This document shows, one piece after another, positions 14,242 to 43,328 of a stretch of 64,000 nucleotides of DNA. Each line of letters starts with the position of its first letter. The stretch's first letter is position 1. The stretch is from positions 26,284-90,283 of IMG/VR virus record IMGVR_UViG_2885358051_000002; one strand, given 5' to 3'. This stretch comes from a virus. Lineage: Duplodnaviria; Caudoviricetes. The position numbers and the translations under genes are program-made. The notes under the pieces were generated by a model that ran no database searches, was not told where the DNA came from, and saw only the letters and a program-made list of their open reading frames with translations.

Positions 14242-14267
14242 CGTGGTTATAATCTGTTATTGTGCTA

Positions 14268-14299
14268 CAAAAATAAAGGTTTTAATCGGATTTACAAAA
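14268..14299 (-). promoter_or_regulatory. Bacteroidetes housekeeping-type promoter overlapping the conserved motif GGTTTTAATCGGATTTACAAAA
   Basis: TTTG-19 nt-TATTTTTG; the 22-mer is identical at 52704-52725 and its 16-bp core recurs at 38483-38498. Confidence 0.7.
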
Positions 14300-15209
14300 T
14301 AAAATCTCTTGTTTTTGCGATTACGCCCCTTATTTTTAACGTTTAAGGTTGATTTCGATGAGGAAAGGATGAAAATCTGTCTGCCTGAGTATGTTTATCA
14401 GATGTCTTCTAATGGGACAACCCGATGACCAGTATTCTCGGAACTTAGCTCTCCGCCTTTGCTCACCACCCCACTCTCCTTATCTTTTTCCTTAGATCCT
14501 CAAAATAACTTTTTGAAGGTTGAGACAATGAAAAGGGGAAAGTCAGAAATGAAATAAAAAGTTGAGCAAAGAGACTAAAAGAGGGGAAAAGTAATTTTGA
14601 AAAATGCTCCAAAACACTGAAAACTATTACCCTTATACAAGTAAAAAGTTATTTTACCCTCTTTTTTACAAACATTCCGCACACAGGAAGAAAAACAAAA
14701 AAAAAGAAAAATCTATCAGAAACAAGCCAAAATCCCCTCATTTTGCTATCCATAATTTTTTCCTAATTATCTAATAGTCAAAAGAGAAAGTGGAACTTTC
14801 GTATATTGCTTTATGCCTTTTGAGGTCTGGGGAAAAGAGGGTCTTGGAGAGACGCAAAATTCGCAAAATAATCAGCAGGGTATGGAGAAAAACCACTTTT
14901 TCTCCTTTTGGACTTGAAAAAGGAGGGATAAAAGGAGGAAAAGTAGCGGAAATACAAGGGATTCCGAAGATGGGAGGACACTCTTAGCCCTCCTCCTTTT
15001 AGTCTCCCTAAGCATCCTTGAAAATCAGGAATGGCAAAACACACACGAACAGGAGTTTTTTTTGCGCGACCGCTTGCACATGTCAGGGGGATTTAGTAAA
15101 TTTGCATTGTATATTAAATTGGGATATTGTTTGCTTTTTGTTTTGTTATAGGAATTGGAGCCTCTCCATTAGGTCAATAGCGGTTAATCCCAATAAGGTG
15201 AGACCAAAA

Positions 15210-15237
15210 GCGCCCCGAAGTCCAAACTTCGAGGCGT
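15210..15237 (-). terminator. Intrinsic terminator ending the ACP/KAS operon
   Basis: ACGCCTCGAAG/CTTCGGGGCGC stem then TTTT on the minus strand. Confidence 0.7.
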
Positions 15238-15267: not shown

Positions 15268-16497
15268 CTACGGAAGAAGGTTGAGGAATATGGCCGCGTT
15301 GGTACCACCGAAACCAAAAGAATTGCACAGACAAAGCCCGTGATTGTATTCCTGTGGTCGCGTGGGAATAATGAGAGATGAAGCTGCGCTGTCCTTTTCG
15401 GCAAGATGGGGGTGCGGGGAGACAAAGCCTCCTTGCTGCTGGATGATGGCATAGACGATAGTCGATACCCCGGACATCCAACACTCGTGTCCGGTAAGTG
15501 CCTTGATTGGCACCGTGAGTGGTGGCCGTTCCATCCGCTTCGTCAGTTCAGAGATAGCCTGAGCTTCCGCCGAGTCCCCATCCCTTGTAGAAGTCGCGTG
15601 CGGGAAGATGGTTGTCAGTTGCGGTACGGGTGTCTCCTTGCCCAGCGCCATACGCATTGCCGCGAGAATGCTGTCGGCCGACGGAGACACGATGTTTGGT
15701 GATGTAGAGAAACCATAACCCAGTACCTCCGCCATCGGATAGTGCAATCTGCCGGACATAGAAAACCTTTGCGCGTAATGCTCTTCCGATTCTATCACCA
15801 GTGCCGCTGCACCACCCGACGGAACAAGACCATCACGCGATTTGTCAAACGGCCGGGAGGCTGTGGAGGGGGAAGACTCATTGCGAGAGAACACCCCCAG
15901 CGCATCAAATGCCGTATAAGCCAGTGTACCCACTTCCTGCGCCCCTACCACCACTGCAGCGTCGATGATACCAGATGCTATCAAAGAGTGAGCGATGCCG
16001 ACGGCATGGCCACCACCGGCACATGCCGCAGAAAGCGTCAGCGAAAGCCCGCTGAATCCAAAGATAGATGCCAGTGCCATAGATACCGTAGAGTTCAGCG
16101 AGCGAAAGACCTGAAAGCCCCCTACCCTTCGTGTATCGTGATATGTCTCCATGATGCCCTCCGTCTCGGCATTGGCACAAGCCGTGGAGTCATTGCTTAC
16201 GATGAGCGCATAGCGAGAGCAGTCCGTGATGGACGCCTGTGCAAGCGCCTGTTTCACCGCCATGTAGGCATAGATTGACGGCTCGGAAAGACATTTGCGC
16301 TGTGCGTTACGCAGCGGTTCTTTTGTTAAGTCTGGCATGGAAACCAAGCCCGTGAGAGAAGATTGGTAGCCATATACCTTTCGCGCATGAGATATACCGA
16401 TACCAGGAGTGCCGGAGCGGAGACTTTTCGCCACCTCTCCCTGAGACCGGCCGAGACAGGACCAGATACCTATTCCCGTGATTAAAGATTGTCGCAT
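15268..16497 (-). CDS. Beta-ketoacyl-ACP synthase (FabB/FabF family)
   Basis: Catalytic Cys in SAACAGG, His in FPHATST and GHECW, ASRPFDKSRDGLVPSGGAAAL, C-terminal NSFGFGGTNA. Confidence 0.93.
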   Translation of the reverse strand: MRQSLITGIGIWSCLGRSQGEVAKSLRSGTPGIGISHARKVYGYQSSLTGLVSMPDLTKEPLRNAQRKCLSEPSIYAYMAVKQALAQASITDCSRYALIVSNDSTACANAETEGIMETYHDTRRVGGFQVFRSLNSTVSMALASIFGFSGLSLTLSAACAGGGHAVGIAHSLIASGIIDAAVVVGAQEVGTLAYTAFDALGVFSRNESSPSTASRPFDKSRDGLVPSGGAAALVIESEEHYAQRFSMSGRLHYPMAEVLGYGFSTSPNIVSPSADSILAAMRMALGKETPVPQLTTIFPHATSTRDGDSAEAQAISELTKRMERPPLTVPIKALTGHECWMSGVSTIVYAIIQQQGGFVSPHPHLAEKDSAASSLIIPTRPQEYNHGLCLCNSFGFGGTNAAIFLNLLP

Positions 16498-16751
16498 ACA
16501 GAAGGTTTTTTGGAGATAAGAAAACTGATTACATCACGAATGGTGCGAACATTTTTAACGTCCACGCTGTTCAAATCGACCGAAAAAGCCGTCTCTATCC
16601 CAATGATAAAGTCCACTATGTCGAGCGACTCCATACCTATGTCGCAGGATAGGCTGGAATCAAGAGTGATAGACTCCTTTGGTGGCATGAATGCGCTGTC
16701 GAAACGAGCCAAAAGGATTTCGAGAATCCGAGGGAAAATTTTTTCTTCCAT
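16482..16751 (-). CDS. Acyl carrier protein
   Basis: 89 aa; DIGMESLDIVDFIIGIETAF matches the phosphopantetheine-attachment helix (Ser in ESL); overlaps the KAS start. Confidence 0.88.
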   Translation of the reverse strand: MEEKIFPRILEILLARFDSAFMPPKESITLDSSLSCDIGMESLDIVDFIIGIETAFSVDLNSVDVKNVRTIRDVISFLISKKPSVCDNL

Positions 16752-16771
16752 GAATAAATGAATTGATGAAT

Positions 16772-17188
16772 TTATGATTTTATGAAACGCAAGACTTCAA
16801 GTACACGCAATTCCTCCTTTGTCGCAAACTCTTCAGGTGGCAACGCCCTTACGAGTTTTGCTGTATTACGATTATATTCAGTGATGCAGTATTCAAGTTT
16901 AACGCACACATGTGGGAACGGCCTACTGTTACTGTAATCCATATACTTTCCACACGACTTACGCAGCATCGGTGTGTCATCCGGAATATCGACGATAATG
17001 CAAGCATCATACGACACGATGCCTTTGAGGTACCTCCATGCCGTCTTAGGTTCATCCGGAGAAAAGCAGAACCCCTTTGAGACAGATCCACCTTTTCCAC
17101 CTCTGTAATGGTCGGTATTGTTGATAAGTGTCTCTCCTGCCAAGAATTTGTCAAATTCTTGGCGAGAACAAAATCTTGTGAGTATCAT
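16772..17188 (-). CDS. Hypothetical phage protein
   Basis: 138 aa ORF, ATGA-coupled to the upstream gene. Confidence 0.7.
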   Translation of the reverse strand: MILTRFCSRQEFDKFLAGETLINNTDHYRGGKGGSVSKGFCFSPDEPKTAWRYLKGIVSYDACIIVDIPDDTPMLRKSCGKYMDYSNSRPFPHVCVKLEYCITEYNRNTAKLVRALPPEEFATKEELRVLEVLRFIKS

Positions 17189-18328: not shown

Positions 18329-21300
18329 TCAACCCTTCCATCTACGGTCGCCCGAATTGCGCCGCATGAAGGCAGCACCCGATGCCGCCTCTTCCGTAAC
18401 GGAACCCCGCCCAAACTTATTCACATGAAGACCATTGCGTTGGATAAGCGTCATCATTGCCGCGAAACCATCGAGCGAAGCACGGAGAGACGCCACATCC
18501 TCGGAAGAAAGACCAACAGGATGCGTGTCAGTCGTCGCGGAGAAGTCCTGCACGTTGCCACTGTCGTAAGCACGATATGTCATACCTGAGCGATAGCGGT
18601 CGAACTTCACAATTTCCGCCATAAGGTCAGGCCGTGCCATCATCATGGCCGCTGTCGTCTCACGACCGATAACCATTTCCGGTCCACGTTCCGCCACAAG
18701 TGCCGGCTGTCCATTGATGAGTGTCGTGATAGGATCGCGGACAAGCCCAGTGGACAGTTCACCCCCATCCTTGGCCGCATACACATTACCATCGTTACCC
18801 ACGACCGGATAAGTTTTTCCATCCTCTACACCTCGGAAAGCCTGCACGTTACCACTATCATAAGTCAGCATACCCGTGACCAGTTTCACATTCGGCCCAG
18901 CATCCGAAGACTTGTCGCCGCCACCCCCAAAGAGCGAAGACACCTTGCTCATAGCGAATGATAGCAAGCCATTCAACAAGGCCGTGATGACCGCCACGAG
19001 CGGAATACCCCACCAACCGAGCGAACCAATGATTTTAGACGCGCCACTGGCGATACCCATCGTCGTGTTCGCCTGCGTCTTGGCCGATTCCGTCTGCACC
19101 TCCTGTTGCGTCTGCGTCTGCTGCACCTGCAAGGTCTCCTGACCTATCTCCTGCGTAGCCTGTTTGATATTACCCTGTACCTCCTCATTCAAGAACTCCT
19201 GAGCCTGGCCACCCACCTCTTGTGTTTCGGTGATTTGGTCCTGCTTATCCGCTTCGAGCGCGACCATTTTCTTAGTCGATTTCTTCATTGACACAGAAGT
19301 AAGACGGTCATTCATCTTCTGCATGATGCGCCGTTTAGCATACTCTTTAGTCATCTCGATGGTCTGCTTCATAAAGGCTTTAATCATTTCACGGGTTGCC
19401 TCCTTCATCGCCTCTTGTCCTGCATCCGCATCCTCCGTCATAGTCGCGAAAGCCTCTCCGATGGAAGACCCGAAATCCTCGACCGGAGTCGCCAACTGGT
19501 AGATGTCATTGATACGCTGCTTCATCTGTTCGGCCACAGAGCGAGCATACTCCATTTCAGACCTTAGTATAGCCTGTTCCGCATCGCGGAGCGTTTCTGC
19601 ATCCGCCTGGTGCGCAGCGAGGAAATCATAGTACGCCGCAGCAGCCTCCATCTTGAGCCGATAGGCATCAATTTCAGGGTCGTGCCCCATCGAGGATATG
19701 AATGATGCCGCACCATAAGTATCCTTTCGCGGAATACTCTCCCCATTCTCTTTGCGGGCTTGCACATCCGCAGAATACTGGCCAACACCGGACGACAGCA
19801 TCTCGGTGTAATTCTGCGCAGTCTCGTTTTCATGGAACTCCGGCCGTTTCATCCATTGCTCATCAAGAATCTTCTTCTGTCTCTCGCGCGACTTTTTAAG
19901 GGCTTCGGTATAAGAGTCCGAGTATTTAATAAGTTCGCGATAGAAAACGCGGAGTTCATCACCAGACAGATTAAGGACCTGCGTTAATTCCGTGTCGGAG
20001 TTCTTCCAGTCTTCACCGAAAAGGATTGTCATCAAGTCGTTCTTATCCTTAGCAGCAAAAAGATCCGTGATGTGAGTTCGAGCCGTCAGCAACACACGTT
20101 CGATTTCATTGGCACGGCGTTGCAATAAACGCTCCGCATCTTCACCCCCTGCGAGGAGAGTGTCGGCCTGTGCTTCTGACAAATCGAAGAAACCGAGTTT
20201 CTCCATAGACTGTGTATATTCATCATCCACCTTTGCTGTATAGTTATCATCCAAGAGACGGCTTTGCACCTCTCTACGTCGTCTCTGTTCTACGGTCTCA
20301 TTCGTCTTCTCATTGAGTGAGGCATTCTTCCATATCGCATCAATGGAAGCATTCCCGGGGATTTCAAGATTGGCCGACAAATTCATTATGAGATTCCGAA
20401 GTGCAACGGTATTGGACGCATTGATATTATCAAGCAACACCTTTGACTCATTGTAACCTACTTCATCAGCCTGTTCTATCATGTCCGTTTTCATTGTATC
20501 ACGGAACGATTCCCATGTATTTTCCACACCCGCGATGGATTTACGAGCCTGAGAGAGTGCAAGGTTCATACGGCCTTCCACCGCCCGTACAGCAGATTCC
20601 GTGAGAGCCGTGTCCCAATTCTGTTCGTTTGCCGTGCGGAGCACCTCTGTAATCTGCCTCTGATAGAAGTTTTTTATGTTATCAATGACGGCACGAGCCT
20701 GGTCCTGAGCATCTTTCAAGTCTCTTCTCCACTCCTGCTTTTGCCGCGCCGCTTCCTCCTTGGCACGTTTGAGCGCATCTTTGTCAGGAGCTTCATTGTC
20801 AAGAGTGCCAGGTTCTTCATTTTGAACAGAGACATCGGTAATCGTGTCCTCAAAAGGTTTCCATTTCTTATTGACACGATCCATAGCGTTATTGGCTGAC
20901 ACTATTTGCGAAACATAACGCATTGCACGATAAAGTTGCTGTTCTTTTGCTGTCAAGTTGCGAGTATTCGATTCCCTACTCATCATGCTCATTACAGCAG
21001 ACTCGCCATTATCTACAGCATAAGGAGCAACCGCACTATAATCTTCTTGCGATTTTTCGATGTCTGTCCATTTAGTTGGTACTGCACGAGAACGATTTTT
21101 AATGGCATCACTAATAATTTTAGCATCCACGTTCCATTTTTTACCAAGATCTTTTCCTATCTGTTCAATAGACTTACCGGCTTCCAAGGCATCTTCAACA
21201 TATCCCTTCAACCATTCTCCATTCTGACCCGGATTAGCTCTTTCATCATATTCAGAAAGTCTGTCAGCCGCCCATCCTATACGAGGAGTCACTTGTTTTT

Positions 21301-24112
21301 CTATATCCTTCTCGCGGAGTTGAAGTGCAATCTTCGCTTTCAACTGTTTGACAACCTCCTTATACGCATTAGCAATGTCTTCAGCTGTGGATTTCTCATT
21401 GAGAAGGTTCGTAAGGTAGCCACCAAACTCCTTGTTAAAATTATGTATAGCTGCCTTATGTTCATTAGAACCCTTCTTTGCATTTGTGATAGCATCTGTA
21501 TATCGCTTCAAGCGGTCTTCGGCAACAGCAAAATCACGGTTAAAATCAGACAGAGTAGGATTAAACCCACTCATCCATTCATCCATCTTCTGTCCTTTCT
21601 TCACCACATCATATATGGCCGACCCCAAAGCAACAACAGCGGTAATGACAAGACCTATCACGTTGGCTTTTTGAACTGTATTCAACGCTTTCCATGCTGC
21701 TACGAGTCCATTTGTCTGCAAGGTAGCAAGTACAGAAGCCTTACCCATCAATCCGATAGAAGTAGCCACTCCGGTAACAGCCGCTGCCACCCCTTTGAAC
21801 AGTAAACCAGAAAGAATAGCAGGAAGAAGATAGAGGATGGATTTCATTCCAACCGCTATCATTTCAAGCAATGATTTCAAGACCCAAAGAGCAAACTTGT
21901 TGGATGTCGTATGCTTGGAAAAATCATACCAAGCCCGTGCCATTTCCTTCACCATATCCACCCCTTCCGGATTGACAAAGGCTTTCTCCCAGATATTTCC
22001 GGCACGTTCCATCAATGCCTGAGCCGTCTCCTGCTGAATAGCATATTCCTTTGATACGGCCGTAGCTTCTTCAAAAGCCACCTTAGACGTATTCAAGTGT
22101 TCTTTTAGCATGTCCACATTCTTGCTCATTGTCACCATCACATTGACAAGACGGGCACCATCAGAACCGAGGTCTTTGAATACACCTTGCAGCGCGTTCA
22201 TGTTCCCCTTCTCTCTCATCTTCTCGAAGATAAGCACCATTGCATCAATGGCACGACCAGCAGAATAAAGTTCGTTTATGGTACCGGGTGCTATCTGCAA
22301 TTCATTTTCTATCAGATTGTGCTTGGTCTGTAAAGAAGAAATCAGTTTGTTGAATGCCGTAGAAGCCACCTCCGGCATCAAATACATAGAGTCGGCAGCA
22401 GAACCCAGCGCAAGGAGTTGGTCCGTGGTAATGCCCGCTGTGCGTGCCATACCCGTGAGACGCTTTGCGAACTCCACGATGTTGTTGGAAGTAGCCGTAG
22501 AAGTAGCTGACAGTTGGAACATGGAAGAACCCACGGCCAGCATGGACTTCTCCACACCCATCTTCGGGATAAGACCCATCACCTCCGTTATTTTAGAGAG
22601 AGCCGTAAGTGCATCCGCACCCAGGTCCTCCTTGAGAGCCACGTTCACCTGATTGGCAGCACGGACGAACTGTTCAAGACCTGCTGTGCCATACTTACCG
22701 ATACCCAATTTGGCACCGGCATACGCAATCTCATTCAACTCCTCAATCGTGGTACGAGTGTCGAGCTTAGAAAGAGACTGCGACAAATCATTGACATCCT
22801 TCATGGCCAGACCAGATACCTTGCGAATGTCAGCAAGCTGATCCGAGAATTTCAAGTTCAACCGGAACACGGCCGTAAGTTTCTGTTGAACCATGGAGAA
22901 TAATTGGAAGGCACCAAAGTATGCCGTCATGTTTCTGAGCGTTGTCTGCCATGCGGACGAATGTTTTTTCACCGAATCTGTAGAACGTTCAATTTCCGCA
23001 CGGACTTGTCTCAGTTGTTGTGTCTTTCTGCTATATTCCACCGTGTCCCGCTGGAGCGTTTTCATTTCCGTTTCCAGTTGCTTTGCCGCCTGCTGGAGCT
23101 TGTCAAGCGGTGTGGAACGAAGATTTTTCAGAACCTTGTTCACATCCACCGTTTCGCGATCCACACCATCCAAAGCCTCGCGAAGTGTCTTGGCAGACTG
23201 CACCAACTGGCTGCGCATCGGGTCGTTGATAGCCATATTCTTCAGCTGCTTGTTCACATTATCAAGAGCCGTCTCGATTTCCTTTGGGGTAAACCTTTTC
23301 GGATCCATGGCAATGTCTGACGCTTCCTGTGCTATCTGCTGTGTAGTTTTAGCCACCTCCTTGTTTTTGCCGGCGATAGCATCTAACTGTTCGTCCGCCT
23401 TTTTCAGTTCGTTGTTTACGTTCTTGATTTCCATCGCGGGGTCTGCCACTTGCACTCCACCCGTACCTATGGAGTCACGATAATTTGTCAGGTTCTGACG
23501 AGCTGCACGAAGAGAATCCGCGCTGGGCGTTCCTGAATTTATGGTAGCCACAGAACGATTACGCTGCTCCTGCGAAAGTTGAGAAAGCACATTCTGCTGG
23601 CGGATATATTCCGTAGTGCCCTGCTTCGTCTGTTGGAGCAAGGATTTCGTCTGTTGAATAGCCTTATTGAGCCATGCGTCTGAAGTAGAAGAGAGGTTTC
23701 CGATATGCTTACCAATGTTCAGCATCTCTCCCTGCAGCACTTTTATCTGGTCGGATATTGCCTTGTATTTCGCACGTAGGTCATCCAACTTCGGACTGTC
23801 TGTGCTCACCTTAGCCATCTCCTTTTTCACTTGACGCAGCGCACGGTTAAGTTGTGAAAGCGACGAGTTAGAGAGGTCATTCGTCACCTTCACAATACAA
23901 TCCATATTGTCCTTTCCCTCTTTGACAGCGACAGAGAGCTCCTTAATGTCGTGCGCCATTTTCTTGGCACGTTCGGTACCCGCCTTTCCGGAATCCACGA
24001 GCTGCTTGTAAGTGCCTTGAAGCCTTTTTAGTTCCGTTTCCATAGCCCGGACTGCGGCCACAGGCTGCTTGGTGTTACATGTAATGATGACTTCCTGTTT
24101 TTGAGTACTCAT
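18329..24112 (-). CDS. Tail tape measure protein (1927 aa)
   Basis: Long coiled coils, TP901-like core (FSDQLADIRKVSGL...), central hydrophobic A/G-rich segment. Confidence 0.92.
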   Translation of the reverse strand: MSTQKQEVIITCNTKQPVAAVRAMETELKRLQGTYKQLVDSGKAGTERAKKMAHDIKELSVAVKEGKDNMDCIVKVTNDLSNSSLSQLNRALRQVKKEMAKVSTDSPKLDDLRAKYKAISDQIKVLQGEMLNIGKHIGNLSSTSDAWLNKAIQQTKSLLQQTKQGTTEYIRQQNVLSQLSQEQRNRSVATINSGTPSADSLRAARQNLTNYRDSIGTGGVQVADPAMEIKNVNNELKKADEQLDAIAGKNKEVAKTTQQIAQEASDIAMDPKRFTPKEIETALDNVNKQLKNMAINDPMRSQLVQSAKTLREALDGVDRETVDVNKVLKNLRSTPLDKLQQAAKQLETEMKTLQRDTVEYSRKTQQLRQVRAEIERSTDSVKKHSSAWQTTLRNMTAYFGAFQLFSMVQQKLTAVFRLNLKFSDQLADIRKVSGLAMKDVNDLSQSLSKLDTRTTIEELNEIAYAGAKLGIGKYGTAGLEQFVRAANQVNVALKEDLGADALTALSKITEVMGLIPKMGVEKSMLAVGSSMFQLSATSTATSNNIVEFAKRLTGMARTAGITTDQLLALGSAADSMYLMPEVASTAFNKLISSLQTKHNLIENELQIAPGTINELYSAGRAIDAMVLIFEKMREKGNMNALQGVFKDLGSDGARLVNVMVTMSKNVDMLKEHLNTSKVAFEEATAVSKEYAIQQETAQALMERAGNIWEKAFVNPEGVDMVKEMARAWYDFSKHTTSNKFALWVLKSLLEMIAVGMKSILYLLPAILSGLLFKGVAAAVTGVATSIGLMGKASVLATLQTNGLVAAWKALNTVQKANVIGLVITAVVALGSAIYDVVKKGQKMDEWMSGFNPTLSDFNRDFAVAEDRLKRYTDAITNAKKGSNEHKAAIHNFNKEFGGYLTNLLNEKSTAEDIANAYKEVVKQLKAKIALQLREKDIEKQVTPRIGWAADRLSEYDERANPGQNGEWLKGYVEDALEAGKSIEQIGKDLGKKWNVDAKIISDAIKNRSRAVPTKWTDIEKSQEDYSAVAPYAVDNGESAVMSMMSRESNTRNLTAKEQQLYRAMRYVSQIVSANNAMDRVNKKWKPFEDTITDVSVQNEEPGTLDNEAPDKDALKRAKEEAARQKQEWRRDLKDAQDQARAVIDNIKNFYQRQITEVLRTANEQNWDTALTESAVRAVEGRMNLALSQARKSIAGVENTWESFRDTMKTDMIEQADEVGYNESKVLLDNINASNTVALRNLIMNLSANLEIPGNASIDAIWKNASLNEKTNETVEQRRRREVQSRLLDDNYTAKVDDEYTQSMEKLGFFDLSEAQADTLLAGGEDAERLLQRRANEIERVLLTARTHITDLFAAKDKNDLMTILFGEDWKNSDTELTQVLNLSGDELRVFYRELIKYSDSYTEALKKSRERQKKILDEQWMKRPEFHENETAQNYTEMLSSGVGQYSADVQARKENGESIPRKDTYGAASFISSMGHDPEIDAYRLKMEAAAAYYDFLAAHQADAETLRDAEQAILRSEMEYARSVAEQMKQRINDIYQLATPVEDFGSSIGEAFATMTEDADAGQEAMKEATREMIKAFMKQTIEMTKEYAKRRIMQKMNDRLTSVSMKKSTKKMVALEADKQDQITETQEVGGQAQEFLNEEVQGNIKQATQEIGQETLQVQQTQTQQEVQTESAKTQANTTMGIASGASKIIGSLGWWGIPLVAVITALLNGLLSFAMSKVSSLFGGGGDKSSDAGPNVKLVTGMLTYDSGNVQAFRGVEDGKTYPVVGNDGNVYAAKDGGELSTGLVRDPITTLINGQPALVAERGPEMVIGRETTAAMMMARPDLMAEIVKFDRYRSGMTYRAYDSGNVQDFSATTDTHPVGLSSEDVASLRASLDGFAAMMTLIQRNGLHVNKFGRGSVTEEAASGAAFMRRNSGDRRWKG

Positions 24113-24140: not shown

Positions 24141-24177
24141 CAAAGATAGAACTCGGAGTATGCGAAAAGGGGACAAA
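24141..24177 (-). promoter_or_regulatory. Putative late promoter TTTGTCCC-N21-TATCTTTG
   Basis: Same 25-nt architecture, 29 bp upstream of the tape measure start. Confidence 0.72.
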
Positions 24178-24235: not shown

Positions 24236-26770
24236 TTATACGGAAACTATATTTGTAATCTTCAAATCTCCATAGTTTACCGTAACGATGAAGTTAGCCA
24301 CCTTACCTGACGAACCCCAAGTAGGTGGGAGGTCAGCATTGGTAATGCGCAGGATTCGTGTGGGCACCGATGATGGCCAATGTGCCTTAACCCATCCGAG
24401 GTCAGACTGCTGTTCGGCCGGTGTACGAGAGTCCACCGCTTCCCCATAATTACCGATATATCGCTCCCAGGACCAATCTTTGTCTTTTAGAGAGTCCGTG
24501 ATGTCGTAGTTTCCGCAAAGAAGATGAGGATCGAGGTAGATATTCACATAACCCGGATATGCCGATGCAGAAGTGATACGCTGGCCCGATTCATTGTAAA
24601 AACGTATCTCAAGGTCTTGAAGACCATACACCATGTGCCATACGGAAGACAGCGGATGCGGTTCGTCGGCCACAGAAGATGGTGACACGAGATACCACTT
24701 GCAGCCCCCATAGGTAACGGTTGGATAAGTGCGAGAAGAGCGTTCATAATTCATTGCCGGGTCCCATTCACCCAAAAACACCTCCTGCGCATAGGCACGT
24801 GTCAGGACAAAAGAAGCGGAAGTGGTGTATGTCTCTGTTGAAGAATCCGTTTGCACGTCACGCGATGCCGCCACGATATAAAGCGCCCCATTCTCCGGAA
24901 TATCCGTGAAGAAAAACTCCAAAGCAGAAGGAATGCCATCGGGATATTTTGCGGCCATGACATCGTTCCACGCCTTATCAGCAACATCATCGCCAGACTG
25001 CCGTGTGATGGTAAGTTTATAGCCACCAGAAATGATGCTGCCCTCCACATCCTGCAAGACAAAATCCGCACGGAGATGTTCGTCTTCGGCTATGGTTCCA
25101 TCCGGCCGAGAAAGTCGGATGTCAATGCGGTCGGAGAAGCGAGTGAACTGGTCGAGAATACCATATATATGCGCATTTTTCGTGACGAACCCCTCTCCAT
25201 CAAATTCTTTGCGAGAGACAACCCCGTTGTCGTCGACCCGCAGCATGACAAATCCAGTAAGGTCGCCCCATCCTCCCATAAAAGTATGCTCCTCCCATTC
25301 CCAAGTATTGACCCCCTCGAAACGTGCTGTATAGGAAGTCGTATAGACAAAGAATTTCTGTCGTTCAGGATGGTCAGTTCCGAAGAATCCAGAAACGGAG
25401 AGTACCGCCCACTGCTGTGGAGAAGGCGAATAAGAACCATCGGAGAACTGTCGCGCCTGTACCGTTACCAAACCCGCAGTGAGGACTTTATCATCAGGAT
25501 GCGGGATGTAGTCCGCATCCTGCGCAATATAGGAAACCGTGTCATTCTCCGTGCGCTCCACCACATTGTCCACTGCAATGACCCGACAATAGATAGACTC
25601 GAACCCTGCGCGGGAGATATTACCCCGGCGGTCATCTGCATTAGCTGACGCATTTTTAGAGCCATCCATATTGTGCCAGAACCCACGAAGAATGTCGTGA
25701 ACCAGGAACTCACCCGGTTCCCCGTCATTCAAGTCAAGCACAAACTGGCAGGTGTGTGCCGAAGCATCTACGGCTATCACCTCCTTAACACGACCCTTAC
25801 CGGCCGAGTCCCAGCGTGTACCCGCCAACACTTCAATAGAGTTATATTTCAGCGTAGGAACGGATAGCGACTGCGAAAGTTCGAGGTTACGCGCGAAGAT
25901 AGTTCCATCCGGCAAAAAACGCATACCCTCGCGAGCACCGATCCCCACCTGGCCATCCTTCTCAAAATCGCCCACAGTAACCGTCTTCTTCAGTACCGTC
26001 TCTCCCTTAACCAAGATAGAGTTATTGAATGTGATTTTGCCGTTGGCCACATCATCGTGCGTCTTGGAGAGCCAATGATTCTCGGCATAGGCCGGCGTAA
26101 CGAGATGGTCGTCGGAGTCCTCTTTCGTACCATCCCCCGCCACCCCGTTGATGATATTACCATTAAGAACAAGCTGCTTTAAGGATGCCCATGTAACCGT
26201 CAGTTTCTCAAATGTCGCTTCCGCTATCGTCTTGATAAAGCGTACCATATCAGCAGAAGCCACATATTCCCACCATGTATCAGATCCACCTGCGGCGATG
26301 GACTCATCAGATGCCAGTTGTCCACTGTTGATGACCTGTTGCCAAGTGCGGTCCTGTACCACACCTCCCACTTCGGACGGAGAGATGATGCCCTGCGTAA
26401 AGATATAGTAATGCGTATTAGGCCCTACCTGCGTTCCGCTCTCATTGCATCCATAGATGTCAATCAGCTCAGAGGGAAACACCACCTGCGCATTAGCATC
26501 GGCATCCTCAGACTTCGGAATGGCAATGTACACATAACGGATAAGATTGTCGTGAAAAAACGTAGGCGATGCTACCAACGGCCATCTGCGGTAGTTGTGC
26601 GCATTGTCATATCCAAGTCCGGATATGCCACGCATATAGCACATGACCATGGAACCGGAAGAGCAGTTGGCATGGATGTAGTTGCGGTCTCCAGTAGCGT
26701 TAAGCTGTATGAAGATAGCATAATTGGAAAACCAATAGTCAGCAGGACGAGCGAGAGTCATATCAATCAA
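24236..26770 (-). CDS. Tail/baseplate structural protein (844 aa)
   Basis: Acidic, beta-rich, upstream of the tape measure; resembles Bacteroidales phage tail proteins. Confidence 0.7.
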   Translation of the reverse strand: MIDMTLARPADYWFSNYAIFIQLNATGDRNYIHANCSSGSMVMCYMRGISGLGYDNAHNYRRWPLVASPTFFHDNLIRYVYIAIPKSEDADANAQVVFPSELIDIYGCNESGTQVGPNTHYYIFTQGIISPSEVGGVVQDRTWQQVINSGQLASDESIAAGGSDTWWEYVASADMVRFIKTIAEATFEKLTVTWASLKQLVLNGNIINGVAGDGTKEDSDDHLVTPAYAENHWLSKTHDDVANGKITFNNSILVKGETVLKKTVTVGDFEKDGQVGIGAREGMRFLPDGTIFARNLELSQSLSVPTLKYNSIEVLAGTRWDSAGKGRVKEVIAVDASAHTCQFVLDLNDGEPGEFLVHDILRGFWHNMDGSKNASANADDRRGNISRAGFESIYCRVIAVDNVVERTENDTVSYIAQDADYIPHPDDKVLTAGLVTVQARQFSDGSYSPSPQQWAVLSVSGFFGTDHPERQKFFVYTTSYTARFEGVNTWEWEEHTFMGGWGDLTGFVMLRVDDNGVVSRKEFDGEGFVTKNAHIYGILDQFTRFSDRIDIRLSRPDGTIAEDEHLRADFVLQDVEGSIISGGYKLTITRQSGDDVADKAWNDVMAAKYPDGIPSALEFFFTDIPENGALYIVAASRDVQTDSSTETYTTSASFVLTRAYAQEVFLGEWDPAMNYERSSRTYPTVTYGGCKWYLVSPSSVADEPHPLSSVWHMVYGLQDLEIRFYNESGQRITSASAYPGYVNIYLDPHLLCGNYDITDSLKDKDWSWERYIGNYGEAVDSRTPAEQQSDLGWVKAHWPSSVPTRILRITNADLPPTWGSSGKVANFIVTVNYGDLKITNIVSV

Positions 26771-41547: not shown

Positions 41548-42575
41548 ACCTGTTGGCGGAATTAATTTAGTGCATACTTAATTCTGCCAATGGGCTTGTC
41601 GTTAATGAAGTTTACGTATTGCAGAATGGTAAGTGCACTAATTTTGCCAATGATCCTGGCAAACAAACCATTCGTTATTTTCGCATAGTTCCTGATGACC
41701 AAGAACTGGTCTGTAAGTTGTGAGAATATTGTCTCAATCCTCTTTCTTGCCTTTGCAAACGGAATGAATGTCGGTTTCCAATCCTTTTGGTTGAGCCGAT
41801 ACGGACACTCCAGTCTTATGTGTGCGGTTTCGAACAAGTCAAGCTGTACGTCAGCTCCAATATACCCTTTGTCACCATAGATGCTACAGTCGTGATAAGT
41901 ATGTTTTACATCCTTCATATAATGGAGGTCCGCCACACTTGCCTTTGACAGATCATAGGAATGGATAACTCCACTTAACCCACAGAGAGCGTGTAACTTA
42001 TAACCAAAATAATACGTGTTCTGCGAAGCACAGAAGCCGAAGTCGGGAGCTTGCGAGAAATTGCCGGTACGTCCCATCTTGCAACGTTTTCCTCTTGCAA
42101 CCCTACAGACCTCTATCGGCTTGGAGTCAACAAAGAATTGTTCCTCTCCGCCATCCATTTCCATGGCAATCCGCTTGCGCAGTTCCTCACACAGGCCTGC
42201 CGTTTTCTTCCTGCGGTCATTGAACTGTCTCCTTGATATGAGATTAGGAATGTTGTCCTTGTACTCTTGCAATTTATAGTCGAACAACCACTTCTCACTA
42301 TCAATGCTCTCGGTCTCTGCCGTCAAGGATAGCGCCACCACTTCCAAATCCGAAAACTTGGGAACAGGACCACGACGTGGAACATTACCCGATTCATTGA
42401 CGAGATTTTCAGAGAATTGCTTGCATATCTCGAGTATTTTGACGAATTTTGTATAAAGGTTGTACATACGATGGTTTGGACTTAATGTTTTGAACACCAC
42501 TAGGTTACTAAAAATCAGCGATATGTGCAACTTTTTACTCATATTTATCAACTTAAATTAATTCCGCCAACGGGT
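41548..42575 (-). mobile_element. IS982-family insertion sequence (1028 bp)
   Basis: 22-bp inverted repeats ACC(T/C)GTTGGCGGAATTAATTTA at 41548-41569 and 42554-42575; 7-bp target duplication AAAGATT at 41541-41547 and 42576-42582. Confidence 0.95.
41562..42551 (-). CDS. IS982-family DDE transposase
   Basis: FVDSKPIEVC, YFGYKLH, YGDKGYIG, RKRIETIFSQL. Confidence 0.95.
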   Translation of the reverse strand: MINMSKKLHISLIFSNLVVFKTLSPNHRMYNLYTKFVKILEICKQFSENLVNESGNVPRRGPVPKFSDLEVVALSLTAETESIDSEKWLFDYKLQEYKDNIPNLISRRQFNDRRKKTAGLCEELRKRIAMEMDGGEEQFFVDSKPIEVCRVARGKRCKMGRTGNFSQAPDFGFCASQNTYYFGYKLHALCGLSGVIHSYDLSKASVADLHYMKDVKHTYHDCSIYGDKGYIGADVQLDLFETAHIRLECPYRLNQKDWKPTFIPFAKARKRIETIFSQLTDQFLVIRNYAKITNGLFARIIGKISALTILQYVNFINDKPIGRIKYALN

Positions 42576-42992: not shown

Positions 42993-43328
42993 ATGAATCC
43001 GACTGAACAACAACCAAATGAATTTATTTCCATTAAGATAGACAATGGAAATGTGTCATTACACCGATACAATGACAGACCCGATGATATTATTCTCACA
43101 TCCCTATATGTCAGAAAAAAACGGAAACAAGGTAATGGCACAAAACTGTTGTTACGAGCAGAACAAATAGCTCGCGGTTTACATGCGAAACAAATTTTTC
43201 TACAGGCAAAAAAACACTCATGGCAAAAACAATGGTACAATCGGCGCAAATATGATGATTATGAAGACAATGGTAAATTTATATGGATGAAGAAAGTGTT
43301 GAATGACTCAACATCCGAGCAAGTGTAA
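42993..43328 (+). CDS. GNAT-fold acetyltransferase-like protein
   Basis: ILTSLYV...RKQGNGTKLLLRAEQIA...IFLQA...WYNR acetyl-CoA-binding pattern. Confidence 0.65.
   Translation: MNPTEQQPNEFISIKIDNGNVSLHRYNDRPDDIILTSLYVRKKRKQGNGTKLLLRAEQIARGLHAKQIFLQAKKHSWQKQWYNRRKYDDYEDNGKFIWMKKVLNDSTSEQV

Follow-up and report, generated by a model that had tools for sequence, protein, structure and literature searches.

A phage-borne acyl carrier protein and ketosynthase pair related to Bacteroidota aryl-polyene/flexirubin-type clusters

Results

An overlapping ACP–KAS pair on a tailed phage contig

We analyzed a window of 64,000 nucleotides (nt) from a Caudoviricetes phage (IMG/VR record IMGVR_UViG_2885358051_000002, positions 26,284 to 90,283), which forms the last 64 kb of the 90,283-bp contig C204; numbering throughout is by window position. 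On the minus strand lie two overlapping genes, one encoding an 89-residue (aa) acyl carrier protein (ACP; 16482..16751) with its serine in a GMESLD motif and the other a 409-aa beta-ketoacyl synthase (KAS; 15268..16497), which is KAS I-like and of the aryl-polyene/flexirubin type. According to the list of open reading frames (ORFs), the 3' end of the ACP gene and the start of the KAS gene share 16 nt. This overlapping pair had been proposed in an earlier sequence-only reading of the window, and both the ORF list and Pfam bear it out.

The KAS matches the two Pfam domains of its family (PF00109, ketoacyl-synt N, 78.8 bits; PF02801, ketoacyl-synt C, 40.2 bits), each above the 20.8-bit cut-off. 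Against FabB enzymes of known structure, the KAS aligns along its full length (residues 1–405; E 1e-54 to 1e-55; 181–190 bits; ~33% identity), compared with 136 bits for FabF and 107–109 bits for the aryl-polyene ketosynthase ApeR (PDB 7F27 and 4EWG). Cys159, His300, Lys332 and His337 are in place together with Thr302/Thr304, Glu311 and a GFGGTN loop, all of them invariant in 23 relatives, and the gating loop F394-G-F396-G-G is invariant in all phage sequences. When numbered on FabB, for which the reference was an Escherichia coli FabB from host DNA inside NC_049343, the equivalents of Cys163, His298, Thr300, Thr302, Glu309, Lys328, His333, Phe390, Phe392 and Asn396 are invariant in all 20 of the phage sequences compared. 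On sequence grounds the protein belongs to the elongating Cys-His-His beta-ketoacyl synthases (KAS I/II, thiolase superfamily), and it is predicted to be a homodimer-type ketosynthase that condenses malonyl-ACP.

Neither of the familiar housekeeping classes accommodates it. Although the best NCBIfam match is FabB, the score of 233.2 bits lies far under the cut-off of 630; the protein also falls outside the FabB clade (Shimodaira–Hasegawa-like approximate likelihood-ratio support, SH-aLRT, of 99 for the separating branch), and the FabB pocket residues G107, F229, L335 and G336 are replaced. We therefore rejected it as a FabB (KAS I) orthologue, and likewise as a FabF (KAS II) orthologue (186 bits against a cut-off of 493.75; 29% identity to the host FabF). 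The PHROG library contains no family for the phage KAS.

The ACP carries a PP-binding domain (PF00550, 34.3 bits against a cut-off of 20.8) and matches PHROG 5934, 'acyl carrier protein', at 4e-8. All 27 ACPs in the alignment, phage and cellular, have the carrier serine (Ser42), so that the sequence-only reading was correct in finding both the Cys-His-His residues and the ACP serine intact. The score remains below the NCBIfam AcpP-type cut-offs (44.7 against 71 bits), which points to a divergent, dedicated ACP. That reading had also named relaxed selection as a result that would speak against it; instead, dN/dS values were 0.09–0.19 for the KAS and 0.03–0.30 for the ACP (Nei–Gojobori; 11–12 pairs, covering both of the phage groups described below), and the pair is under purifying selection.

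The pair closes a run of tail genes

The ACP and KAS genes are the last of a tightly packed run of minus-strand genes that starts at a tape-measure-like gene (18329..24112; 1,927 aa), which is the first gene of the putative transcription unit and was identified from matches to PhageMin_Tail (1e-10) and to PHROG tape-measure families (down to 6e-28). Two genes of the same strand lie in between: a 370-aa conserved phage protein (17185..18297) with homologues in both phage groups, for which an ESM Atlas look-up returned viral hypothetical clusters only, and a 138-aa lineage-specific ORF just upstream of the ACP (16772..17188) with no Pfam, NCBIfam or PHROG match. The 138-aa ORF is not found at the matching position in L009, a relative with 84% identity, or in the other arrangements described below.

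A candidate promoter of the unit, a Bacteroidetes-type -7 box (TATCTTTG; 24141..24148, minus strand), was found by pattern search 29 nt upstream of the tape-measure start, and the same search found none ahead of the ACP between 16752 and 17700. At the other end, 32 nt past the KAS stop, a terminator-like hairpin (15211..15236, minus strand) matches the consensus with an 11-bp stem containing seven G-C pairs, a 4-nt loop and a T-rich tail. Because a -7 box precedes the tape-measure gene and none precedes the ACP, a hairpin follows the KAS and the genes are tightly packed on one strand, the simplest reading is that everything from the tape-measure gene to the KAS would be co-transcribed. The earlier placement of the pair at the end of the tape-measure transcription unit thus agrees with the strand and with the tape-measure match upstream. 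Its further claim, that the pair has its own terminator, holds for the presence of the hairpin but not for its statistics: such hairpins are no more frequent in the region than in shuffled sequence, and the -7 box motif is likewise not enriched over shuffles, so both elements are suggestive by position alone.

Upstream of the unit, on the same strand, lies a gene for an 844-aa tail protein (24236..26770) that matches the N-terminal part of giant tail-fibre proteins in related phages. These homologues, 2,000–2,800 aa long, end in a Peptidase_S74 chaperone domain and are matched by PHROG tail families.

Ancestry in Bacteroidota pigment clusters

In a search of cellular genomes, with one genome per species, the best KAS matches (39–43% identity) were all from Bacteroidota, namely Flavobacteriaceae, Chitinophagaceae, Dyadobacter, Alistipes, Prevotella and Bacteroides fragilis, followed by proteobacterial FabB at 31–35% identity. 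The KAS gene adjoins an ACP gene in all of these Bacteroidota loci and directly follows a ketoreductase (KR) gene in most; most loci also contain several genes from a set that comprises ApeP/ApeI-type dehydratases, a 4HBT thioesterase, extra ketosynthases (KS), LolA, MMPL and an FAD oxidoreductase. They are aryl-polyene/flexirubin-type clusters.

We placed the KAS in a maximum-likelihood tree rooted on FabF and other cluster ketosynthases. The two phage groups form one clade (SH-aLRT 95) on a long separate branch, which is sister to, and not nested in, the clade of Bacteroidota pigment-cluster enzymes (94), with the FabB clade outside both. Separate origins, modeled by joining group 1 to the Bacteroidota clade without group 2, were 27.7 log-likelihood units worse and were not rejected by the approximately unbiased test (p = 0.119). 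A single acquisition of the cassette by both phage groups is thus favored, not proven.

The substrate pocket points in the same direction. Relative to FabB, phage and pigment-cluster KAS share G107S, 135F, F229L, L335C and G336W, the last two being part of a GHECWM motif. The ancestor of the phage KAS and ACP, acquired long ago, was the KR-KAS-ACP core of aryl-polyene/flexirubin-type lipid-pigment clusters in Bacteroidota rather than housekeeping FabF/AcpP. The sequence-only reading, which had spoken of fatty-acid or polyketide-type genes, needs correcting on this point: the KAS gene is not a fatty-acid gene of the FabB/FabF type, and the enzyme branches with the Bacteroidota pigment-type ketosynthases. 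What surrounds the core in the cellular clusters (KR, ApeP/ApeI dehydratases, thioesterase, LolA/MMPL export genes and second KS) is absent from C204 and from beside the pair in every phage arrangement.

Distribution and arrangements in related phages

A protein search returned at least 120 relatives, with 55–97% identity and many of them on contigs of 85–108 kb. At least 79 phage contigs of 85–110 kb in IMG/VR carry the pair. The number of related phages that keep it runs into the hundreds, conservation being a point that the earlier reading had proposed to check, and its description as unusual in tailed phages has to be qualified, since it is common within its own phage family.

Four arrangements recur. 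In the window and in L009 and L098, the order is tape measure, 370-aa gene, the 138-aa ORF where present, ACP and KAS; in L006 and L100–L105 the ACP and KAS directly follow the tape measure. In a third form (L099, L106 and a 104-kb contig of another metagenome-assembled genome (MAG) of the same genus), an 844-aa tail protein is followed after ~2 kb by ACP, KAS and the 370-aa gene. The fourth characterizes a second large group with 37–44% identity, in which a 949-aa gene precedes KAS, ACP, a 351-aa gene and a giant tail fibre. All four place the pair within the tail/structural block, on its coding strand. For the 353-aa gene directly past the ACP in group 2, an AlphaFold model (pLDDT 68) was all-beta; its weak top PDB matches were beta-sandwich proteins of immunoglobulin/fibronectin type III (Ig/FN3) type, with no Foldseek match to the PDB at E <= 0.001, and an ESM Atlas look-up gave viral hypothetical clusters only. 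We take the product of this gene to be structural and not enzymatic.

The cassette is not universal among these phages. At the junction between the 949-aa and 351-aa genes, 33 related loci have the cassette, 18 lack it and one has the ACP only. Moreover, five relatives scored as 100% complete by CheckV have no KAS anywhere, in a search that did match its positive controls. The low dN/dS, taken together with these complete relatives, marks the pair as a selected but accessory cassette. It lies between phage genes, with those for tape-measure and tail proteins to one side and those for primase and ThyX to the other, has cellular metabolic ancestry and is dispensable in relatives, which makes it an accessory metabolic cassette.

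The locus with the ACP only (L200, 5711–5995; IMGVR_UViG_3300045988_124897) has an ACP-like ORF between the 949-aa and 351-aa genes, and no KAS was found in this 66-kb record, which is 80% complete. Very divergent KAS were also seen on long branches, in a 160-kb IMG/VR contig (L151, 34% identity), where no ACP was detected beside the KAS, and in a GVMAG giant-virus contig (L169, 32% identity).

When 12 kb was compared with GenBank phages by megablast, nothing matched, and tblastn of a phage collection gave 27 matches, nearly all of them FabB/FabF at 25–33% identity in records that resemble host DNA. In one of these, NC_049343.1 (L261, 25409–32620; Escherichia phage 500465-2), the end of the record is ordinary E. 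coli chromosome with mnmC, fabB, an MFS transporter and flk, so that the FabB credited to the phage comes from the host. Several further FabB/FabF matches in the collection resemble this host-flank artefact.

The phage contig and its putative host

C204 was binned in a 2.95-Mb Bacteroidales MAG of 225 contigs that is 92% complete; its GC content is 45.7%, against 47.1% for the MAG. Over its whole length it is phage DNA. Beyond the tape-measure-like and tail proteins, the contig encodes a head maturation protease, holin, endolysin and the reverse transcriptase of a diversity-generating retroelement, as well as DnaN, a primase-helicase, ThyX, NAD ligase, many DNA methyltransferases and a ParA-like gene. 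The last is a partition ATPase (AAA_31/CbiA; PHROG 164), and no integrase was present among the families listed (25 of 29 matched). The phage may be kept as a plasmid-like prophage. Metagenomes of the rat and mouse gut, sampled in several studies, contain it.

The FabF and AcpP genes of the host lie on contig C211, and their products share only 29% and 25% identity with the phage KAS and ACP, respectively. The pair is thus far from the host locus, which answers the concern, raised in the sequence-only reading, that it might be near-identical to a host chromosomal copy. The host MAG has one phosphopantetheinyl transferase (PPTase; contig C203), one FabD and FabG-like reductases, and FabF is its only elongating KAS.

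Among 24 genomes of the host genus, nine gave high-scoring KAS matches (E <= 1e-160), and all 14 places fetched from these nine proved to be chromosomal aryl-polyene/flexirubin-type clusters. These clusters (L268–L281) follow two layouts, KR-KAS...ACP-ApeP-4HBT-KS-KS-LolA-ApeI and a compact KAS-ACP-ApeP-ApeI-MMPL-FAD oxidoreductase-KR-LolA without a second ketosynthase, and some genomes have both.

Partner enzymes for the pair were sought on the phage itself. A Pfam census of 83 C204 ORFs (25 of 29 matched families listed) contained no acyltransferase, reductase, dehydratase or PPTase, and targeted searches of the 90-kb contig for a PPTase, FabD-type and PlsC-type acyltransferases, a KR and a dehydratase found none, in agreement with the earlier statement that no such enzyme is nearby. 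No acyltransferase adjoins the ACP–KAS pair in any of the four phage arrangements. Lacking a PPTase, FabD, reductase, dehydratase and acyltransferase on C204, the phage would have to use host enzymes. The only exception to these negative results was a 111-aa ORF on the plus strand (42993–43328) with a sub-threshold match to GNAT (19.5 bits against a cut-off of 20.7). We do not connect it with the cassette: it is too short for a full GNAT domain and lies 27 kb away beside an insertion-sequence (IS) element.

A proposed condensing module and its alternatives

On balance, we think that the pair is probably an active, phage-owned condensing module that works on a private carrier and, during infection, lengthens a pigment-lipid-type acyl or enoyl chain inside the cell. 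The timing of expression, the use of host enzymes, the class of substrate and the benefit to the phage are what we infer in the following scheme. A transcript running from the candidate promoter of the tape-measure gene to the hairpin past the KAS would express the pair together with the late tail genes. The host PPTase would convert apo-ACP into holo-ACP, host FabD would load malonate, and the phage KAS would then join malonyl-ACP to an acyl or enoyl primer held on Cys159. Host FabG/FabZ-type enzymes would process the beta-keto product or, in hosts that have an aryl-polyene cluster, the KR and dehydratases of that cluster may do so instead, the outcome being a chain built on a carrier under phage control. 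Since the pocket signature is that of pigment-lipid ketosynthases, a precursor of envelope lipids, unsaturated or polyene-like, is a more likely product than a saturated fatty acid made in bulk. The best reading of the cassette would then be an accessory, host-directed set of auxiliary metabolic genes, not a building block of the virion, and of the functions suggested in the sequence-only reading, putative remodeling of host lipids is the most plausible.

Several observations weigh against this account. A purely metabolic role leaves the constant placement of the pair in the tail/structural block, across four arrangements, unexplained. The pocket signature is read from sequence. The assignment of the phage to the MAG is by binning only, and no aryl-polyene genes were found in that MAG (92% complete), so that pigment-pathway partners are missing in this host and only enzymes of type II fatty acid synthesis (FASII) could serve. 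The residues R62, K63 and R66, with which FabB docks its ACP, are N, A and K in the window KAS, a partial replacement. Lastly, two RNA-library runs gave short, scattered contigs over the region including the KAS at a depth of ~1–3, for which carry-over of DNA is possible and which speak neither for nor against transcription.

A simpler metabolic role would be that of a booster, with the pair acting as an extra FabB/FabF and AcpP to sustain or raise host FASII flux and the supply of membrane lipids. FabB does provide the best solved-structure and NCBIfam matches, the host has FabF as its single elongating KAS, and predicted Rhodobacteraceae prophages with fabG-acpP-fabF have been interpreted in this way (PMC8224337). 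However, we regard a booster as unlikely, given that the scores lie far under the family cut-offs (FabB, 233 against 630 bits; FabF, 186 against 494 bits), that the KAS branches with the pigment-cluster ketosynthases and has their pocket substitutions, and that a simple boost would not call for a private ACP sharing just 25% identity with host AcpP. A further alternative, favored by the constant placement, is private lipidation for the virion or for entry: a chain would be moved from the phage ACP to a tail, tape-measure or ejection protein, or the ACP and KAS would themselves ride in the virion, and so aid membrane penetration or assembly. In all four arrangements the pair lies in the tail/structural block, beside tape-measure, 844-aa tail-fibre-type, 370-aa or 353-aa Ig-like proteins, and it is apparently co-transcribed with the tape-measure gene. 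Yet no arrangement has an acyltransferase with the pair, the gene past the ACP in group 2 has a predicted all-beta structural fold and not that of an enzyme, and complete relatives have the same structural genes without the cassette, which is thus not needed to build or fire the virion. These relatives weigh against an essential role in virion acylation, one of the earlier proposals, and lipidation for entry appears somewhat less probable still than a booster.

In a related and similarly doubtful scenario, the private carrier and KAS would build a special, possibly polyene-like chain for use by the phage, which might insert it into the host outer membrane, altering adsorption or blocking superinfection, or else attach it to a protein of its own (tail, tape-measure or ejection). 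Phage-run lipidation of this kind would explain the constant place of the cassette in the tail block and, if true, would be a pathway so far undescribed. It is much harder to see the proteins as a non-catalytic decoy that binds or titrates host factors, such as an ACP-sensing defense or FASII regulators, with no product. Nothing speaks directly for this, apart from the partial change of the canonical ACP-docking patch, while every catalytic residue, the malonyl-binding threonines, the gating loop and the carrier serine have stayed unchanged between phage lineages as far apart as 38% identity, as expected if the enzyme works. The decoy idea, also raised in the sequence-only reading, therefore has no support and is highly improbable. 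Least credible of all is the idea that misassembly or binning put host DNA on a phage contig. Host flanks do account for several 'phage' records with FabB/FabF, for example the E. coli fabB-mnmC of NC_049343, but here phage genes lie on both sides of the pair, the identity to the host copies is low, and dozens of independent assemblies show identical junctions, as do contigs of other studies, among them one of 23.6 kb that covers a 15-kb stretch of the window in full.

These large phages of gut and rumen Bacteroidales, which form an abundant family, have retained the carbon–carbon bond-forming core of a secondary lipid/pigment pathway without its other enzymes. The usual auxiliary genes of phages are copies of host housekeeping steps, in contrast to the pigment-pathway core seen here. 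Its retention across deep divergence and under strong selection suggests that the chemistry of envelope lipids or polyenes in major gut bacteria can be steered by phages, or be put to use by the phages themselves. In other bacteria, tolerance of oxidative stress and the formation of biofilms are reported to depend in part on aryl-polyene-type lipids (PMC8253772, PMC13532178), and a phage hand in the pathway would thus bear on gut colonization.

Comparison with known systems

By descent, the nearest known system is the KAS in the FlxC position, with its ACP; by function, it is the NodFE type of ACP and KAS unit. The aryl-polyene-type KAS of Bacteroidota, such as those of the aryl-polyene-like clusters in Bacteroides, Prevotella and Alistipes, are the nearest kin (39–43%) and the sister clade of the phage enzyme, stand beside a small ACP and share its pocket (S104, F131, L224, C339 and W340, at FabB positions 107/135/229/335/336) and the GHECWM motif. 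Unlike the phage, these clusters have a KR, ApeP/ApeI dehydratases, a thioesterase, a second KS or chain-length factor, LolA and MMPL, all of which the phage has lost; in the phage group of the window, the order is also inverted to ACP then KAS, the genes overlap and the branch is long and separate. The flexirubin cluster of Chitinophaga pinensis has the gene order flxB-flxC, that is, KR-KS (PMC3992019). The likeness to this FlxC is one of gene order, KR-KS-ACP, only and not of sequence comparison.

E. coli FabB (KAS I; PDB 1FJ4 and 1DD8) supplies the best-scoring structures and the same catalytic constellation, but the phage KAS does not reach the family cut-off, forms part of a separate clade and has the pocket residues G107, F229, L335 and G336 replaced. 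NodF and NodE of rhizobia are a dedicated ACP and KAS that form a two-gene unit, borrow housekeeping fatty-acid synthesis enzymes and make a special unsaturated acyl chain. The product of NodFE has a known acceptor, which it reaches through the acyltransferase NodA. The phage pair resembles NodFE in gene content, being a two-gene ACP and KAS unit with no other fatty-acid enzymes on the phage; the likeness is one of function, with reliance on host enzymes presumed, and an acceptor and acyltransferase are known for NodFE alone.

ApeR of Acinetobacter baumannii and Paraburkholderia (PDB 7F27 and 4EWG) is a FabB-like homodimeric aryl-polyene ketosynthase with dedicated ACPs (PMC8358021). Because it is less similar to the phage KAS than FabB is (107–109 against 181–190 bits), we regard it as a functional analogue by context, not an orthologue. 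Among phages, single ACPs are already known (PHROG 5934), and fabG-acpP-fabF sets in predicted prophages have been listed as auxiliary metabolic genes (PMC8224337). Those are single ACPs or host-like operon fragments, whereas the pair described here is diverged, of pigment type, inherited within a phage family and located in the tail block. We found no description of a phage ACP–KAS pair of this kind in the literature, and the gut-phage paper of Benler (2021) makes no mention of acyl, ACP or ketoacyl.

Other features of the window

Between the terminator-like hairpin and the next operon, the ORF list and the sequence show ~1 kb without a plausible ORF (14242..15210). This spacer is pyrimidine-rich with A/T tracts, and the relatives L006 and L009 have a 163-aa or 202-aa gene in its place. 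No Rfam families were found in the window, the spacer included. The operon past it has a 127-aa gene and a -7 box at 14268–14275. In two rodent-gut DNA runs, a contig shares with the window only islands of ~30 nt, at 14266–14298 and 16750–16777, with 972 unrelated letters between them. In the window these two sites bracket the cassette together with its spacer; the islands could be a conserved promoter or junction motif, or could mark replacement of the cassette in another phage, the flanks being too short to decide. Farther away, an IS-type transposase (DDE_Tnp_1, 2e-23) is encoded on the minus strand at 41562–42551, among the DNA-modification genes of the phage.

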